From an uncultured Chloroflexia bacterium (GTDB lineage Bacteria; Chloroflexota; Dehalococcoidia; UBA2979): a stretch of DNA of 64,000 bases. The translations under genes and the position numbers were made by a program. A model generated the notes under the pieces. It did not search any database and was not told the origin of the DNA. It worked only from the letters and a program-made list of their open reading frames with translations. The stretch covers positions 1,280,001 through 1,344,000 of the forward strand of contig CAVSIV010000006.1 in the NCBI GenBank assembly GCA_963728205.1, in the 5' to 3' direction. Positions 3,787 to 12,696 of this stretch are shown here, piece after piece; the stretch's first letter is position 1; the number at the start of each line of letters is the position of its first letter.

Positions 3787-4833
3787 TTAATCCGGGCCGA
3801 GCACGTCGGCGAGCGCGCGGTCGTATGGCGCCCGCAGCACGCCGGCTTCCGTGACGATCGCGGTGATGAGGGCGGCGGGGGTGACGTCGAAGGCGGGGTT
3901 GCGGGCGCGCGCGCCCGAAGGCGCGACGCGCGTGCCGGCGAGGCCCAGCACTTCGTCCTCCGCACGTTCCTCGATCGGGATCGCGGCGCCGGTGGGGGCG
4001 CGGAGGTCCACGGTGCCGAGGGGAGCGACGACGTAGAACGGGATCGCGTGATGACGTGCGGCGATGGCGAGGCCGTAGGTGCCGATCTTGTTCGCGGTAT
4101 CGCCGTTCGCGGCGATGCGGTCGGCGCCGACGAGGACCGCATCGACCTCGCCGGCGGCCATCAGCGCCGCGGCCGCGCCGTCGGCGATCACCGCGCAGTC
4201 GACGCCGTGCTGCGCGAGCTCCCACGCGGTGAGGCGGGCGCCCTGGAGGCGCGGGCGGGTCTCGTCGACGAGCACCGAGGCGACGCGACCCGCGCGATGC
4301 GCGGCGATCACGACACCGAGCGCGCTCCCGTAGCCGCCGGTCGCGAGCGGTCCCGTGTTGCAGTGCGTGAGGACGCGGCTGCCGGGCGCGATCAGCGCCG
4401 CGCCGGCGTCGGCCGAGCGGCGGTCGACGTCGAAGGCGTGCGCGTGGACGCGCCGTGCCTCGGCCAGGGCGGCGTCGCGCGCGGCCTCGTCGTCGGACGC
4501 GTCGACGCAGGCGGTGGCGACGTGTTCGAGCGCCCAGCGCAGGTTGACGGCGGTCGGGCGGGTCGCGAGCAGGCGCGCAGCGGTGGTCGCGACGGCGGAG
4601 CGCACGCCGCCGCGCGGTGCGGCGCGTGCGGCGAGCGCGAGTCCGTACGCGCCGGCGATGCCGATCGCCGGCGCGCCGCGGATGCGCATCGTCGCGATCG
4701 CCTCGGCCATCGCCTCCGGCGTTGCGATGTCGATCGTGCGCTGCTCCGCGGGGAGGAGGGTCTGGTCGAGGAGGCGGACGCGACCGTCCGCCCAGGCGAT
4801 GACCTCGTACGGAGGACGGTCCGGGGTTGTCAT
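3787..4833 (-). CDS. mtnA: S-methyl-5-thioribose-1-phosphate isomerase
   Basis: LLDQTLLP, IRGAPAIG, RPTAVNL, LTHCNTG, DETRPRLQGARLTAWEL, GADRIAANGDTANKIGTY, NPAFDVTP. Confidence 0.95.
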   Translation of the reverse strand: MTTPDRPPYEVIAWADGRVRLLDQTLLPAEQRTIDIATPEAMAEAIATMRIRGAPAIGIAGAYGLALAARAAPRGGVRSAVATTAARLLATRPTAVNLRWALEHVATACVDASDDEAARDAALAEARRVHAHAFDVDRRSADAGAALIAPGSRVLTHCNTGPLATGGYGSALGVVIAAHRAGRVASVLVDETRPRLQGARLTAWELAQHGVDCAVIADGAAAALMAAGEVDAVLVGADRIAANGDTANKIGTYGLAIAARHHAIPFYVVAPLGTVDLRAPTGAAIPIEERAEDEVLGLAGTRVAPSGARARNPAFDVTPAALITAIVTEAGVLRAPYDRALADVLGPD

Positions 4834-5585: not shown

Positions 5586-6380
5586 GTGAACCGATCGTCC
5601 GACGCGCCCTCCGATCCGTTCGCCGCGGTGGCCGGGTTCTATGACCTCGATCTCGACGGCTTCGATGCCGACGTCGCGCTCTACGAGCGCCTGTCCGACG
5701 CCGGCTGGCGGAGCGTGCTCGAGCTCGGGTGCGGGACCGGCCGCGTCGCGGCCGCGCTCGGGCGCGCGGGGCTCGCGGTCACCGGCGTCGACGTGAGCGC
5801 CGCGATGCTCAACGCCGCGCGCGAGCGCGTCGGCGGGCTGCCGGTGCGGCTCGTGGCCGGTGACATGCGAACGCTCGCGCTCGGCGAGCGCTTCGACGCC
5901 GTGATCGTGCCGCTCGGCGGGCTGCAGCACCTGGAGAGCGTCGACGACCTGGTCGCGACGCTGGGGGTGGTAGCGGGGCACCTCGCGCCGGAAGGGCTCG
6001 CCGTGATCGACGTCGAGGCGCCGAACGCCGACGACTTCACGCCGGGGACGCAGGCGCTCGTCGAGCACTGGACGCGCCGGCGCGACGACGGTGCGCAGGT
6101 GACGAAGCTCGTCACCGTCGACGCGCGCCCGGCGGAGGGCATGCGCGACGTGACGTGGCACTTCGACGTGCAGCCGCCGGAGGGCGCGCTGCGCCGCGTG
6201 ACGGAGCGGTTCGCGTTGCGCACCTACACCGCCGCCGAGATCGATCTCGCCGCGCGGCTCGCCGGGCTCGCGATGACGGGCGCGTTCGGCGGCTACGACC
6301 TCGAGCCGTACGACGACGCGTCGGAGCGGCTGATCGTGACGCTGGAGCACGCTGAAGACGGCGCGGAGGACGGCGCGTGA
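5586..6380 (+). CDS. class I SAM-dependent methyltransferase
   Basis: VLELGCGTGRV, GVDVSAAML, GDMRTL; start trimmed to GTG 5586. Confidence 0.88.
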   Translation: MNRSSDAPSDPFAAVAGFYDLDLDGFDADVALYERLSDAGWRSVLELGCGTGRVAAALGRAGLAVTGVDVSAAMLNAARERVGGLPVRLVAGDMRTLALGERFDAVIVPLGGLQHLESVDDLVATLGVVAGHLAPEGLAVIDVEAPNADDFTPGTQALVEHWTRRRDDGAQVTKLVTVDARPAEGMRDVTWHFDVQPPEGALRRVTERFALRTYTAAEIDLAARLAGLAMTGAFGGYDLEPYDDASERLIVTLEHAEDGAEDGA

Positions 6381-7432
6381 CGGTCGTCGCGCTCGACGGC
6401 ATGGGCGGCGACTTCGCGCCGCAGGCGACGGTGGCGGGCGCGCTGCTCGCCGTCGCGGACGGCATCGGCGTGGCGATCGTCGGCGACGAGGCGACGCTGC
6501 GCGCGGAGATCGCGCGGCACGGCGGCGCGCCCGACGCGCTGCGCGTCGTGCACGCGCCGGAGGCGATCGCGATGGAGGCGCACGCCGTCGCCGAGGCGCG
6601 GCGGCGGCGCGGGTCGTCGCTGTCGGTCGGCGTCGAGCTCGTGAAGAGCGGCGGGGCCGGCGCGTTCGTCTCGATGGGCAACACCGGCGCGGCGATGGCG
6701 ACGGCGCTGATGACGCTCGGCCGCATCCGCGGCGTGGAGCGGCCGGCGCTGTGCGCGATCCTGCCGACGCCCGGCGGACCGACGCTGCTGCTCGACGCCG
6801 GGGCCAACGCCGAGGCGCGGCCGTCGCACCTCGTGCAGTTCGCGCACCTCGGGAGTTCGTACATGCGCACGCTGCACGGCATGGACGCGCCACGGGTGGG
6901 GCTGCTGTCGATCGGCGAGGAGGCGAGCAAGGGCTCCGCGCTCGTCGTGGAGGCGCACGCGCTGCTGGCGGCGGACGCGCGGCTGCGGTTCGCGGGGAAC
7001 GTCGAGGGGCGCGACGTGACGGCCGGGACGGTCGACATCGTCGTGACCGACGGGTTCACCGGCAACGTCGTGCTGAAGCTGCTCGAGGGCACGATCGGCA
7101 TGATGTTCGAGCAGCTGCGCGCGGCGGCGCGGTCGTCGGTGCGGTCGCGGCTCGGCGGCGCGCTGCTGCTGCCGGCGCTGGGGGCGCTGCGGTCGCAGTT
7201 CGACTACCGGCGGTATGGGGGCGTGCCGCTGCTGGGGGTGAACGGGGCGGTGTTCATCGGGCACGGCCGCAGCGACGCCGAGGCGGTGGCGAACGGGATC
7301 CGCACGGCGGCGCGGGCGGTCGACGGCGGGATGATGGCGGCGATGACGGCCGCGATCGGCGAGCTCGGTGCGCGGGGCGGCGGCTACGCCGGCGAGGGCG
7401 CATCCGGGTCGGCGTCGGGCAGCGGGGAGTAG
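6377..7432 (+). CDS. plsX: phosphate acyltransferase PlsX
   Basis: VALDGMGGDFAP, SMGNTGA, LLDAGANAE, GEEASKG, GNVEGRD, DGFTGNVVLK, GGVPLLGVNG, HGRSD. Confidence 0.95.
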   Translation: MTVVALDGMGGDFAPQATVAGALLAVADGIGVAIVGDEATLRAEIARHGGAPDALRVVHAPEAIAMEAHAVAEARRRRGSSLSVGVELVKSGGAGAFVSMGNTGAAMATALMTLGRIRGVERPALCAILPTPGGPTLLLDAGANAEARPSHLVQFAHLGSSYMRTLHGMDAPRVGLLSIGEEASKGSALVVEAHALLAADARLRFAGNVEGRDVTAGTVDIVVTDGFTGNVVLKLLEGTIGMMFEQLRAAARSSVRSRLGGALLLPALGALRSQFDYRRYGGVPLLGVNGAVFIGHGRSDAEAVANGIRTAARAVDGGMMAAMTAAIGELGARGGGYAGEGASGSASGSGE

Positions 7433-7746
7433 GCGCCGACCTCGTCGGGGGCCGCGCCCATGCCGCCGGCGGAGGGCGCGAAGCGCCACCACAGCCGCAT
7501 GGCGTCGCGCAGGGCGTCGACCTCGCGCTGCGGGGTGGCGTTGCCGAGGCACGACCCGAGGTGGCTGTCGAGCACGAGGGCGCCGACCGTGTCGAGGCTC
7601 GAGCGCACGGCCATGAGCTGCGTGACGATGTCCTCGCAGGTGCGACCGGAGTCCAGCATCTTGGCGATGCCGCGGACCTGGCCCTCGATGCGGCGCAGGC
7701 GGGCGCGGAGCTGCTCGTTGGTGACGGGCTGATCGACGTAGCTCAT
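7384..7746 (-). CDS. CsoR/RcnR-family metal/thiol-sensitive transcriptional repressor
   Basis: RLRRIEGQVRGIAKM...CEDIVTQLMAVRSSL...HLGSC (C-H-C fingerprint). Confidence 0.9.
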   Translation of the reverse strand: MSYVDQPVTNEQLRARLRRIEGQVRGIAKMLDSGRTCEDIVTQLMAVRSSLDTVGALVLDSHLGSCLGNATPQREVDALRDAMRLWWRFAPSAGGMGAAPDEVGAYSPLPDADPDAPSPA

Positions 7747-7789
7747 GGGTGGGCTCCCGGGCTGGTGTTCTGCGGCGGGGCTGCGAGGG

Positions 7790-7818
7790 TTGACATACCC
7801 CACCGGGGTATCTATGAT
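7790..7818 (+). promoter_or_regulatory. sigma70-type promoter for trxA with a CsoR-type operator in the spacer
   Basis: TTGACA(7790-7795)-17 bp-TATGAT(7813-7818); palindrome ATACCCC-ACC-GGGGTAT at 7795-7811 has the C/G-tract form typical of CsoR/RcnR operators. Confidence 0.85.
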
Positions 7819-7843
7819 GCAACCAGTGGAGCCGCGGTGTCAA
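7814..7843 (-). promoter_or_regulatory. opposite-strand sigma70-type promoter for the CsoR-family gene
   Basis: Minus strand TTGACA-18 bp-CATCAT; its -10 overlaps the trxA -10 and the operator lies just downstream. Confidence 0.6.
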
Positions 7844-7982
7844 CCTGCGAAGCGGGTGGCAACGAAGTCTGCCCACTGACACACCAGGCCGAGCCGCGGG
7901 CGTTTTCCCGGAGCCGGCAGACCGCCGCCGCCGGCGCGTGCCGCGCGCGAGGCGGCGAGTTCCACCAGAGAGGACGCAGCCC

Positions 7983-8315
7983 ATGGCACACCCGACCGAC
8001 ACCAGCGACAGCACCTTCGAGACCGACGTCCTGAAGAACGACCAGCCCGTGCTCGTCGACTTCTGGGCGCCGTGGTGCGGCCCCTGCCGCATGGTCGCCC
8101 CGGTGGTCGAGGAGCTCTCGAGCGACTACGACGGCCGCGTGAAGTTCGTGAAGCTGAACACGGACGAGAACCCGCAGGTCGCGGGCAAGTACGGCATCCG
8201 GTCGATCCCGACGCTCCTGATCTTCAAGGGCGGCGAGCCGGTCGGCCAGGTCGTGGGCTTCCGCCCGAAGAGCGACCTGTCGAAGCGCCTGGACGAGGTG
8301 CTGACGAAGGCGTAA
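7983..8315 (+). CDS. trxA: thioredoxin
   Basis: [27 protein letters not shown]; GAGAGGA RBS. Confidence 0.97.
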
Positions 8316-8389
8316 TCCCGTGCTTGCCGCTCGCGCCGCGCGCTCGCTGGAGCGCGTGGGTGGCGCGAGGCGAGGCGCGCGGACTGAGA

Positions 8390-8425
8390 AAGAAGAAGGG
8401 CGGCCATGCGGCCGCCCTTCTTCTT
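8390..8425. terminator. bidirectional intrinsic terminator between trxA and the FTR gene
   Basis: AAGAAGAAGGGCGGCC-ATGC-GGCCGCCCTTCTTCTT, a perfect 16-bp stem between convergent genes. Confidence 0.8.
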
Positions 8426-8501
8426 GGCGCGCGGCAGGCGTCTGAGCCTGCCGTGCGTGGTCCGCGCACGCGACACGGCGGGCCTGGAGCCCGCCGCGCG
8501 C

Positions 8502-8963
8502 CTATTCGTCGGCGCGCGCGCCCTTGTTGATGGTGCGGCCCTGCTTCTCCTCGAGCCGGCCCAGGGCGCGGCCTTTGTCCGGGTGCGGGTCCTTGCGGAG
8601 GCCGTACGCCTCGCGGCCCTCGTGGTCCTCTGGCAGGTACTCGGTGACGGGAAGACCTTCCTCGTCGCAGAAGAGCAGTCAGTGGCAGAACTTCCACTTC
8701 TGCATCTCTTCGCAGGGGCAGATCCACTGCTTCTTGCGGATCTCCTCCTGCTTGTCCTCGAAGAACATGCACGGGCAGAGCGGCTTGCCGACCTCGTCGA
8801 TGTTCTTCGCGAGCCCGATCACCAGGAACTCGGTGATCTCGCGCTGCGGGTGCAGGTAGGAGCCGCTCTTCTCGGCGAAGTTCTCGACGAACTTCCACAT
8901 CCGCTGGATGTTCTTTTCGGAAGCCTGGGCCCGGTCGGCATCGGATGGCTGATCGATGGTCAC
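8502..8963 (-). CDS. ftrC: ferredoxin:thioredoxin reductase catalytic subunit, probable selenoprotein (UGA=Sec at 8679-8681), 153 aa
   Basis: GLAKNIDEVGKPLCPC...WICPCEEMQKWKFCH[TGA]LLFCDEEGLPVTEYLPEDHEGREAYG...; the TGA sits exactly at the second Cys of the FTR CHC motif; the frame stays open for 58 more codons to TAG; GGAGG RBS before the GTG start. Confidence 0.88.
8646..8666 (-). promoter_or_regulatory. bacterial SECIS-like hairpin
   Basis: 12 nt after the UGA: GACG(A)GGAA-GGUC-UUCCCGUC; the apical AGGUCU resembles the E. coli fdhF SECIS loop. Confidence 0.75.
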
Positions 8964-9048
8964 GCCGCGCCTCCAATCCGCAGAGAGTCTCTGTGGGGCG
9001 GGCGAGGGAGCGCAAGTGCGCGGGGGACCCGGCTGCCGCCGCAGGTCT

Positions 9049-9072
9049 GTCGGCGGCATGCCTGCCGCCGCT
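9049..9072. repeat. REP-like palindrome
   Basis: GTCGGCGGCATGCCTGCCGCCGCT. Confidence 0.7.
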
Positions 9073-9100
9073 GTGGGTCGGCCGCACGATCCTGGGCGCG

Positions 9101-10231
9101 TTACCCGTGTAGCGCGGAGACGGCCGGGCGCGGCGGCTCGGGCGCGACGCCGTTGAGGACGTCGACGGCGCGAAACAGGTCGCCGACATCGTAGAAGTTC
9201 ACGGCGATGATGTTCGGTCGCGTGGCGTGCTCGTCCTCGCACTGGTGGGCGCGTGCGAGCAGGACGTCGAGCTGGTTGACCTGCGCCGCGTCGGCGCGGT
9301 CGGGCCGCCGCTTCGCGATCCAGTGGTTGAGGAGCAGCAGCGCGCTCGACGGCGCACCACGATTGACCGCGCAGGTGAAATCGGCGGTGCCGTGGAAGTC
9401 GTACGGCGTGTCCCACGCCTCGCTGTAGAGGTGGGTGTACCAGTCCGGCGGCGGCCCGGCGTGCTCGGCGCCGACGATGACGCGGCGGTGCCGCGCGATC
9501 AGCTCGCGCAGCGTCGGCCAGGGAGTGTTGGGCCGGTGGGCGTAGACGTCGTCGATGAGCCCGCTGGCGCGGAAGGCAGACTCGGTGTCGGCGGGGCTGA
9601 CGGCGTCCTGGAGGTCGAGGATGAGGACCTCGTCGTGATGGGTGGCGAGGAAGGCGCGGATGTCGCGGAGGGTGTCGACGAACGGCGTCGCGCCGAGCGT
9701 GCAGACGACGTGGCAGAGATACACGCCGGCGGGCGGGGCGGCGAGCGCCTGGCGGTCCGCGATGGCGGAGCGGTCGGCCGGCGCGAGCGATGCGGCGAAC
9801 CGTACGTAGTCGTCGGGGCGCTCCCAGTAGTGCGTGTCGAGGAGCAGCGCGCGCACGCCGTCCTGGAGCTGACGCGGCACCGCGTAGTCCTGGTTGGGCC
9901 AGGTGAAGCCGAGCGCGGCGGCGGCCATCGCGTTGTGCGTGCCGGCGAAGACGACCTGGTCGACGCGGCGGTCACAGAGCTCGGCGAAGCCGTTGCAGCG
10001 AAGCGGTGGCGGGCCGTCGGCGATCGTGAGCGCGCGGGACGCGGCACGCGGATTGGGACGCGCGGCCGCGGCCGAGGGCGCGCAGGTGCGAGCGGCGGCC
10101 GGGCGGCAGCCGGAGCGCGTGCCGGTGACGGGCGTGGCAGCGGAGGCCAGAGCGCCGACGGCCGCGAGTAGTGCGACGACGACGGCGCGGCGCGGGGTGC
10201 GGGAGAGACGCCGGCCCAGCGCCTCGAACAT
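9101..10231 (-). CDS. secreted PI-PLC X-domain-like phosphodiesterase
   Basis: Signal-like N-terminus; CNGFAELCDRRVDQVVFAGTHNAM, NQDYAVPRQLQDGVRALLLDTH, YLCH, PNIIAVNFYDVG. Confidence 0.75.
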   Translation of the reverse strand: MFEALGRRLSRTPRRAVVVALLAAVGALASAATPVTGTRSGCRPAAARTCAPSAAAARPNPRAASRALTIADGPPPLRCNGFAELCDRRVDQVVFAGTHNAMAAAALGFTWPNQDYAVPRQLQDGVRALLLDTHYWERPDDYVRFAASLAPADRSAIADRQALAAPPAGVYLCHVVCTLGATPFVDTLRDIRAFLATHHDEVLILDLQDAVSPADTESAFRASGLIDDVYAHRPNTPWPTLRELIARHRRVIVGAEHAGPPPDWYTHLYSEAWDTPYDFHGTADFTCAVNRGAPSSALLLLNHWIAKRRPDRADAAQVNQLDVLLARAHQCEDEHATRPNIIAVNFYDVGDLFRAVDVLNGVAPEPPRPAVSALHG

Positions 10232-12599: not shown

Positions 12600-12696
12600 G
12601 GGAGTGGATGTTGTCCGGTGATGGCCGCGGTCTTCAAAACCGTTGCGGGGCTACGTCGTAGTCCTGGGTGGGTTCGACTCCCACGCACTCCCGCCA
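12600..12696 (+). tRNA. selC: tRNA-Sec (anticodon UCA)
   Basis: Folded by hand: acceptor GGGAGTG/CACTCCC-GCCA; 6-bp D stem GTTGTC-CGGT-GATGGC; anticodon arm GCGGT-CTTCAAA-ACCGT; long variable arm; T arm GTGGG-TTCGACT-CCCAC. Confidence 0.95.

Follow-up and report, generated by a model that had tools for sequence, protein, structure and literature searches.

We analyzed a 64,000-nucleotide (nt) stretch of contig CAVSIV010000006.1 from the high-GC genome of an uncultured member of the Dehalococcoidia (phylum Chloroflexota; assembly GCA_963728205.1), hereafter the window, and identified a minus-strand gene, complement(8502..8963), that almost certainly encodes a genuine selenocysteine (Sec)-containing protein of the ferredoxin:thioredoxin reductase (FTR) type. 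Throughout, position 1 is the first letter of the window and codon numbers count from the GTG start of this gene. Taken from comparison of the gene with its relatives, the evidence that it encodes Sec at the UGA of codon 95 (UGA95) is strong.

Reading frame and assignment to the FTR family

The frame opens with GTG at 8963-8961, with GGAGG six bases upstream (8974-8970), and the N-termini of the homologues coincide with this start. It runs through ...KWKFCH to the TGA at 8681-8679 and continues as LLFCDEEGLPVTEYLP... for 58 more codons, up to a TAG at 8504-8502. Re-translation gave a product of 153 residues, in agreement with the original prediction, made from the letters alone, that the frame runs past the TGA for 58 codons. 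The open reading frame (ORF) list generated with translation table 11 stops at FCH (ORF 8679..9416), as had also been noted, and the suspicion that standard annotation would cut the gene short proved justified: a 94-residue database protein ending in ...FCH is an automatic truncation at the TGA. The database also holds full-length Cys forms of about 150 residues that are named ferredoxin:thioredoxin reductase.

In a Pfam profile search, residues 19-102 of the product matched the FTR catalytic chain, PF02943 (81.9 bits, cut-off 22, E 4e-23), and the genome contains one PF02943 gene. Solved plant and cyanobacterial FTR catalytic chains matched at E values from 7.5e-22 to 1.1e-18, and the alignment to the Synechocystis chain 1dj7_A is ungapped, with C63, C65, C82, C84, C93, H94, and U95 falling on positions 55, 57, 74, 76, 85, 86, and 87, respectively. 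The full CPC...CPC...CHC signature is present, with the last Cys replaced by Sec, and CAC takes the place of the second CPC in many relatives. Thus, two further proposals of the original prediction, that the product is of the FTR catalytic type and that the TGA occupies the place of the second Cys of CHC (the Cys87 equivalent), are both borne out.

We take positions 55, 74, 76, and 85 of 1dj7_A to be the ligands of the [4Fe-4S] cluster, and positions 57 and 87 presumably form the redox-active disulfide, with 57 exposed and 87 in contact with the cluster. The roles of the FTR cysteines and of His86, and the two-step mechanism, were reportedly worked out by Dai et al. in 2000 and 2007. By this correspondence, the window protein would bind a [4Fe-4S] cluster beside a redox-active pair.

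Comparative evidence for decoding of the UGA codon

In a first set of 41 related genomes, the gene was found in 24, and the 20 best loci, which share 70-89% protein identity over residues 1-153, carry TGA (18 loci) or TGC (2 loci) in the same column. A scan with one genome per species yielded 579 confirmed relatives, of which the best 80 were used; by title, all 80 are Chloroflexota except for one 'uncultured bacterium'. Across these 100 loci (the 20 and the best 80 of 579), the codon-95 column holds TGA in 87, TGC in 12, and TGT in one, a count that is not a frequency because the two sets share genomes and the 80 were picked by likeness to the Sec form. Of 301 genomes sampled evenly across the class, 75 contain the protein (E <= 1e-20) and 41 have TGA at the column; the FTR-like Sec gene is thus common in Dehalococcoidia. 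The number 41 was reached after fetching and checking 44 rows flagged for TGA. Rows G081 and G054 were rejected as Sec forms, having Cys at the column and a TGA that is a terminal or outside stop, and row G260, from an unpublished genome, was kept within the tally of 75 only.

The original prediction had expected homologues to align on both sides of the UGA with Cys or TGA at that column, and this is what we found; full-length Cys homologues align through to the C-terminus. The recurrence of TGA together with two-sided similarity is far more than expected by chance. Furthermore, a crude ratio of nonsynonymous to synonymous differences per site (pN/pS) over the 45 codons after the TGA was 0.07-0.58 in 19 of 19 pairs with the window gene, and the protein 3' of the TGA is at least as constrained as its 5' part.

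At the level of sequencing data, a 198-nt DNA contig from run X1 spans the TGA without any difference, and this run may be the source sample of the window genome. Record 13 of run X2 covers the TGA as well, with only 15 letters on one side. Contigs of relatives from RNA libraries span the codon (records 3 and 5 of X15 and record 10 of X17), each with 19-42 differences; DNA may be present in such libraries, and these contigs were counted neither for transcription nor for the TGA of the relatives. No sequencing run contained more than 0.20 of the sampled words, and we therefore make no claim on habitat or expression.

The hairpin downstream of the UGA codon

Bacterial Sec insertion sequence (SECIS) elements are stem-loops located shortly 3' of the UGA, with a G in the apical loop, as reportedly described in the bSECISearch literature. 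The hairpin that the original prediction had noticed after the UGA lies at 8666-8646 and shows compensatory changes. Its 5' arm, GACG-(A)-GGAA (8666-8658), and 3' arm, UUCC-CGUC (8653-8646), form four pairs, a bulged A, and four further pairs; the hairpin begins 13 nt past the UGA and overlaps codons D100-V106, and its G-containing GGUC loop (8657-8654) begins 21 nt past the UGA.

When 60-nt stretches of 18 TGA sequences were folded to minimum free energy, 13 of them formed this hairpin. In the alignment of the 18, 89.2% of the cells are paired and both sides have changed in three of the eight pairs; the covariation score is 0.164 versus 0.076 in shuffles, with 0 of 500 shuffles reaching it and all slid registers scoring lower. 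Among 100 distinct Sec forms, columns 18 and 34 pair as U-A in 86 and C-G in nine, with other combinations in five, and the change of G to A at column 34 (a Val/Ile codon) accompanies a synonymous change of C to U at column 18 (an Asp/Asn codon). In all 36 sequences with G at column 33, the synonymous third base of a Pro codon, there is a C at column 20, and this combination closes the bulge. Of 109 distinct Sec forms, 100 contain the 12-base core GGAAGGUCUUCC, as does one of 21 Cys forms. Because the genomes are kin, such counts overstate independence. Different hairpins occupy the same place in a separate six-genome Sec clade, which belongs to a different family of the class, and in one additional lineage. 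Even allowing for this kinship, the hairpin shows the usual hallmarks of a bacterial SECIS.

Several results weigh against this assignment. The 27-nt hairpin, at -9.5 kcal/mol, has a z score of -1.51, with 21 of 200 shuffles folding as well, and the 81-nt stretch has a z score of +1.33, with 184 of 200 shuffles folding as well. No Rfam family matches the hairpin, and a permissive Rfam scan of 8560-8720 returned chance-level microRNA and small RNA matches only, with no SECIS family among them. RNAalifold, applied to the 18 sequences, gives another consensus (columns 21-50), with no compensatory pair. We prefer the 8666-8646 hairpin over that consensus because it alone shows compensatory changes; given the disagreement, support for it comes from conservation and covariation among related genomes.

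Sec decoding machinery

The original prediction placed a tRNA-Sec 3.6 kb away and pointed to selA, selB, and selD as genes to look for in the genome, and all four were found. The tRNA-Sec, called by ARAGORN (12600-12696) and matched by Rfam RF01852 (73.8 bits, gathering score 47, E 3.1e-13), lies 3,637 nt from the start of the FTR-like gene. The genome matches to selA (368 bits), selB (310 bits, cut-off 242), and selD (364 bits) are, like the tRNA-Sec, all above the curated cut-offs. The selD match (contig C4:155115-156053 of the genome) has one in-frame TGA, and the selenophosphate synthetase of this genome is probably itself a selenoprotein.

Sec/Cys switching and a second cysteine

We built a quick maximum-likelihood tree of 128 distinct proteins from 145 loci, with identical rows merged. 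The tree needs at least five Sec/Cys changes, four of which are forced by well-supported branches. It contains a large Sec clade of 100 Sec rows with two nested Cys rows (loci L110 and L114), one isolated Sec row among Cys forms, and the separate six-genome Sec clade with its Cys sisters. The nested TGC forms at loci L110, L114, and L152 retain the Cys found four residues past the Sec position (Cys99), and L110 and L152 also retain the exact 12-base hairpin core. By these traits, the three look like recent Sec-to-Cys reversions, and the core in L110 and L152 looks like a fossil SECIS.

Cys99 itself accompanies Sec in most Sec forms (Table 1). Its codon there is TGC in 83 and TGT in 17, the other nine Sec forms having Val or Thr, and position 99 is Val in 18 of the 21 Cys forms. 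According to the tree, Cys99 was gained in the ancestor of the large Sec clade. Both TGC and TGT are used at this position, which argues for selection on the amino acid rather than on the RNA. Cys99 may reflect lineage history or may be functional.

The C-terminal extension

Downstream of the FTR signature, the protein continues for about 50 residues, among which G103, P105, T107, L110, P111, H114, E115, G116, Y120, and R132 are invariant in the 128 distinct members. The match between the family profile and solved FTR chains is confined to positions 11-102, and the last 58 residues alone had no match among PDB sequences at E values up to 10. As far as these searches indicate, the extension is specific to this subfamily. 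It is conceivable, if rather doubtful, that it stands in for the missing variable subunit of FTR (see below) by covering the cluster.

Relation to known systems

FTR was one of seven new selenoprotein families identified in ocean metagenome reads by Zhang and Gladyshev in 2008 (PMC2398784), on the basis of two Global Ocean Sampling sequences, of which one has Sec in both of the redox-active places; a predicted SECIS and 10 Cys homologues were also reported. Table 1 of a 2022 review by Zhang and co-workers lists the FTR motif CxU under 'Predicted (71)' and not under 'Experimentally verified (16)', and its FTR row cites the 2008 paper only (PMC9312934). The caveat of the original prediction, that FTR-like Sec proteins might already be listed in surveys, was thus well placed. 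In the passages of these papers that describe it, the family shares with the window protein an FTR catalytic homologue, Sec in place of a redox-active Cys, and the CxU motif, and the 2008 family additionally shares Cys homologues and a predicted bacterial SECIS; the comparison is with the published description, and the single-Sec sequence of 2008 may or may not belong to the subfamily with the long C-terminus. The same passages of PMC2398784 and PMC9312934 mention no taxon, spread, thioredoxin neighbor, or experiment. A search of the full-text literature, with subscription journals and supplements outside its reach, returned just these two computational papers, with no experimental study of an FTR selenoprotein and nothing for Dehalococcoidia. 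The window gene is an added member of this computationally known family, and what is added here is its home and frequency in Dehalococcoidia, a SECIS with covariation, Sec/Cys switching, the C-terminal module, and the Cys at +4.

A second group of Sec-containing relatives occurs in the same class. The curated NCBIfam family NF041072 (FtrB family double-selenoprotein) was found in 30 of the 301 class genomes, each time with two TGA codons, and no copy was found in the genome of the window. These paralogues share the superfamily fold and the class with the window protein and have Sec at the column equivalent to U95; they differ in their length of about 121 residues and in the arrangement CPU...CPC...CIU, in which the equivalent of position 57 is also Sec and Ile replaces the His. 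The window protein scores 54.5 bits against the NF041072 cut-off of 160 and is not a member, having one TGA and CPC as its first motif. In two genomes (G054 and G129), the gene for the double-Sec FtrB lies divergently, about 250 bp from a Cys-type member of the window protein's family in which a long insertion separates the first motif from the second. The double-Sec FtrB and this adjacent paralogue may work together.

The plant and cyanobacterial FTR chains (1dj7, 2pvo, 2puk, and 7bzk) share with the window protein the spacing of the signature and the His, aligning ungapped over about 86-89 residues, but have Cys at all positions, lack the 50-residue extension, and come from photosynthetic organisms. 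Their FTR is a heterodimer with a variable subunit, as stated in the relevant passage of PMC9025218. The Methanosarcina FTR-like protein 4tpu matches residues 15-119 of the window protein (E 1.8e-09) and, like it, is non-photosynthetic and without a variable subunit; it has a C-terminal rubredoxin domain instead of the extension and contains no Sec.

Other Sec-bearing architectures were encountered in the phylum. CPC...CPC...CYU followed by a rubredoxin-like CxxC...CxxC tail occurs in two genomes of the class (loci L169 and L170), which form a separate group, and CPU...CPC...CRC with a glutaredoxin-like tail occurs in another class of the phylum (L171). Locus L172 (genome G336) gave no motif with the search pattern. 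By these motifs, several FTR-like subfamilies have Sec in place of one or the other redox-active Cys.

Proposed mechanism and alternative explanations

FTR is the textbook case of disulfide cleavage by an Fe-S cluster: the reaction takes two steps of one electron each, and in the intermediate one of the sulfurs is bound to the cluster. The best explanation of the data as a whole, in which we have high confidence, is that the window protein is a single-polypeptide Sec relative of FTR that would follow this classical cycle. SelB with Sec-tRNA(Sec), recruited by the 8666-8646 hairpin, would insert Sec at UGA95. By analogy, Cys63, Cys82, Cys84, and Cys93 would hold the [4Fe-4S] cluster, and in the resting state a Cys65-Sec95 selenenylsulfide would lie adjacent to it. 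A low-potential donor, most likely ferredoxin, would supply the first electron, by which the selenenylsulfide is cleaved via the cluster; the freed Cys65 would then attack the disulfide of thioredoxin while the selenium stays on the cluster iron, and a second electron would release the selenolate, which would resolve the mixed disulfide. Sec would mainly speed up the cluster-coupled cleavage and the resolving step.

By analogy with the classical enzyme, the window protein is probably a ferredoxin-dependent thioredoxin reductase, although we hold this with appreciably less confidence than the existence of the selenoprotein, and several findings speak against it. The FTR variable subunit (PF02941) had no match in the genome, which is 89% complete, whereas the control genome of Synechococcus elongatus did match, and none of the inspected loci had a variable-subunit gene adjoining the FTR-like gene; the window protein is therefore not part of a classical heterodimeric FTR. 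The genome also encodes a standard NADPH thioredoxin reductase (344.6 bits versus a cut-off of 343.45), and an FTR-like enzyme is therefore not needed as the only thioredoxin reductase. Moreover, a thioredoxin neighbor is absent in 63 of the 100 loci and accompanies none of the Cys-form loci of the set. As suggested by these gene inventories, the protein would work alongside the NADPH system as an FTR-type enzyme of one subunit.

The same findings, namely the NADPH enzyme, the lack of a detected variable subunit in the 89% complete genome, and the loci without thioredoxin, speak for a real FTR-fold selenoprotein that uses another donor or acts on another disulfide or small-molecule substrate. 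Other roles have been proposed for non-photosynthetic FTR-like proteins, for instance, the archaeal rubredoxin-fused form. The invariant C-terminal module, including H114-E115-G116, has no solved relative, and the Chloroflexota Sec architectures (CYU-rubredoxin, CPU-glutaredoxin, and CPU...CIU) suggest a diversified enzyme family. However, the six cluster and redox positions of classical FTR are all conserved in the protein, as is the His, and the only recurrent functional neighbor found is a canonical WCGPC thioredoxin. We therefore regard such a different role as unlikely, though it deserves serious consideration, and the neighboring thioredoxin as the most likely candidate substrate of the proposed reductase.

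Considerably less probable, in our judgment, is a bolder version of the reductase, in which an alternative Cys99-Sec95 selenenylsulfide and a C-terminal module replacing the variable subunit would make a three-chalcogen Fe-S reductase. The Cys99 bond could store or shield the selenium at a distance from the Fe-S cluster, or relay redox equivalents, and the module containing H114-E115-G116, Y120, and R132 could give the enzyme a different partner specificity from chloroplast FTR.

The remaining alternatives concern the codon itself. Reading of UGA95 as Cys, Trp, or Gly, through a reassigned code or a near-cognate tRNA, would be compatible with the Cys that relatives have at this column, since Cys would function there. 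However, TGA closes six of the 21 long coding-like frames of the window and is the terminal stop of the FTR-like gene in four relatives, so the code is not reassigned, and the conserved, covarying hairpin follows TGA forms only, in a genome with the complete Sec machinery. Thus, such a reading is very improbable. Finally, that the TGA is a true stop, whether from a sequencing error, in a pseudogene, or at the end of a 94-residue protein, agrees with the automatic gene calls that end there, the 94-residue database entry included, but is effectively refuted by the TGA confirmed in 41 genomes sampled from the class, the downstream purifying selection in 19 of 19 pairs with ten invariant residues, the loss of one of the two redox-active residues from a truncated product, and the contig of run X1, possibly the source sample, that spans the TGA unchanged.

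Natural selenium at the cluster-facing position offers a ready-made probe of the FTR mechanism, because selenium provides spectroscopic handles and its bonds to sulfur and iron differ in strength, and the natural Sec/Cys pairs, including two recent revertants, can be used for comparison. In addition, gene callers truncate the protein to 94 residues and the NCBI models cover the double-Sec paralogue only; therefore, annotation of this widespread, uncultured class under-reports a redox enzyme.

Genomic context

Table 1. Positions of the FTR-like gene, its parts, and surrounding features in the window
Feature	Position	Strand	Remarks
Predicted selenoprotein coding sequence, whole	8502..8963	minus	153 codons plus TAG; TGA translated as U
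In-frame UGA, codon 95, read as Sec	8679..8681	minus	Third position of the CH-U motif; aligned to 1dj7_A position 87
First CPC, C63-P64-C65	8769..8777	minus	Aligns with 1dj7_A 55 and 57; C63, P64, and C65 invariant in 128 members
Second CPC, C82-P83-C84	8712..8720	minus	Aligns with 1dj7_A 74 and 76; C82 and C84 invariant in 128 members
C93-H94-U95	8679..8687	minus	Aligns with 1dj7_A 85, 86, and 87; C93 and H94 invariant in 128 members
Cys99 codon TGC, four residues past Sec	8667..8669	minus	Cys in 100/109 distinct Sec-form genes and 2/21 Cys-form genes
SECIS-type hairpin	8646..8666	minus	Minimum-free-energy folds, compensatory changes, covariation
C-terminal extension, residues ~101-153	8505..8663	minus	Invariant residues; pN/pS <1 in 19/19 pairs
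Perfect 16-bp inverted repeat, 4-nt loop	8390..8425		Between the convergent thioredoxin and FTR-like genes
Thioredoxin gene, WCGPC	7938..8315	plus	PF00085, E 4.7e-34; convergent with the FTR-like gene
CsoR-type repressor	7384-7803	minus	Neighboring gene
plsX	6377-7432		Neighboring gene
tRNA-Sec, anticodon TCA	12600..12692	plus	ARAGORN (12600-12696); Rfam RF01852

Beside the FTR-like gene, thioredoxin was found in 37 of the 100 loci, plsX in 33, and a csoR-like gene in 26. The true start of the thioredoxin gene in the window is likely the ATG at 7983. The inverted repeat between the two convergent genes is likely a two-way terminator, and we list it as a candidate; a consensus terminator scan of 7800-9200 did not flag it, and the promoter and terminator scan of the same range gave nothing useful for the FTR-like gene. 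The metal- or persulfide-sensing repressor encoded next to the thioredoxin gene may regulate the pair.

Two further ARAGORN calls are a 91-nt tRNA-Arg (4626-4716, minus strand) and a 98-nt tRNA-Trp (8426-8523, minus strand), the latter overlapping the FTR-like gene at its 3' end. Both are below the Rfam gathering score and are probably false positives in sequence of 72% guanine plus cytosine. The upstream ORF at 9101-10231 (minus strand) has no Pfam match, and among the 100 loci, many with 1.5-3 kb on each side, only the window's own locus has a homologue of it next to the FTR-like gene. The context differs in locus L064, where a PAC2-like ORF (named by eye) and rpsN flank the FTR-like gene.

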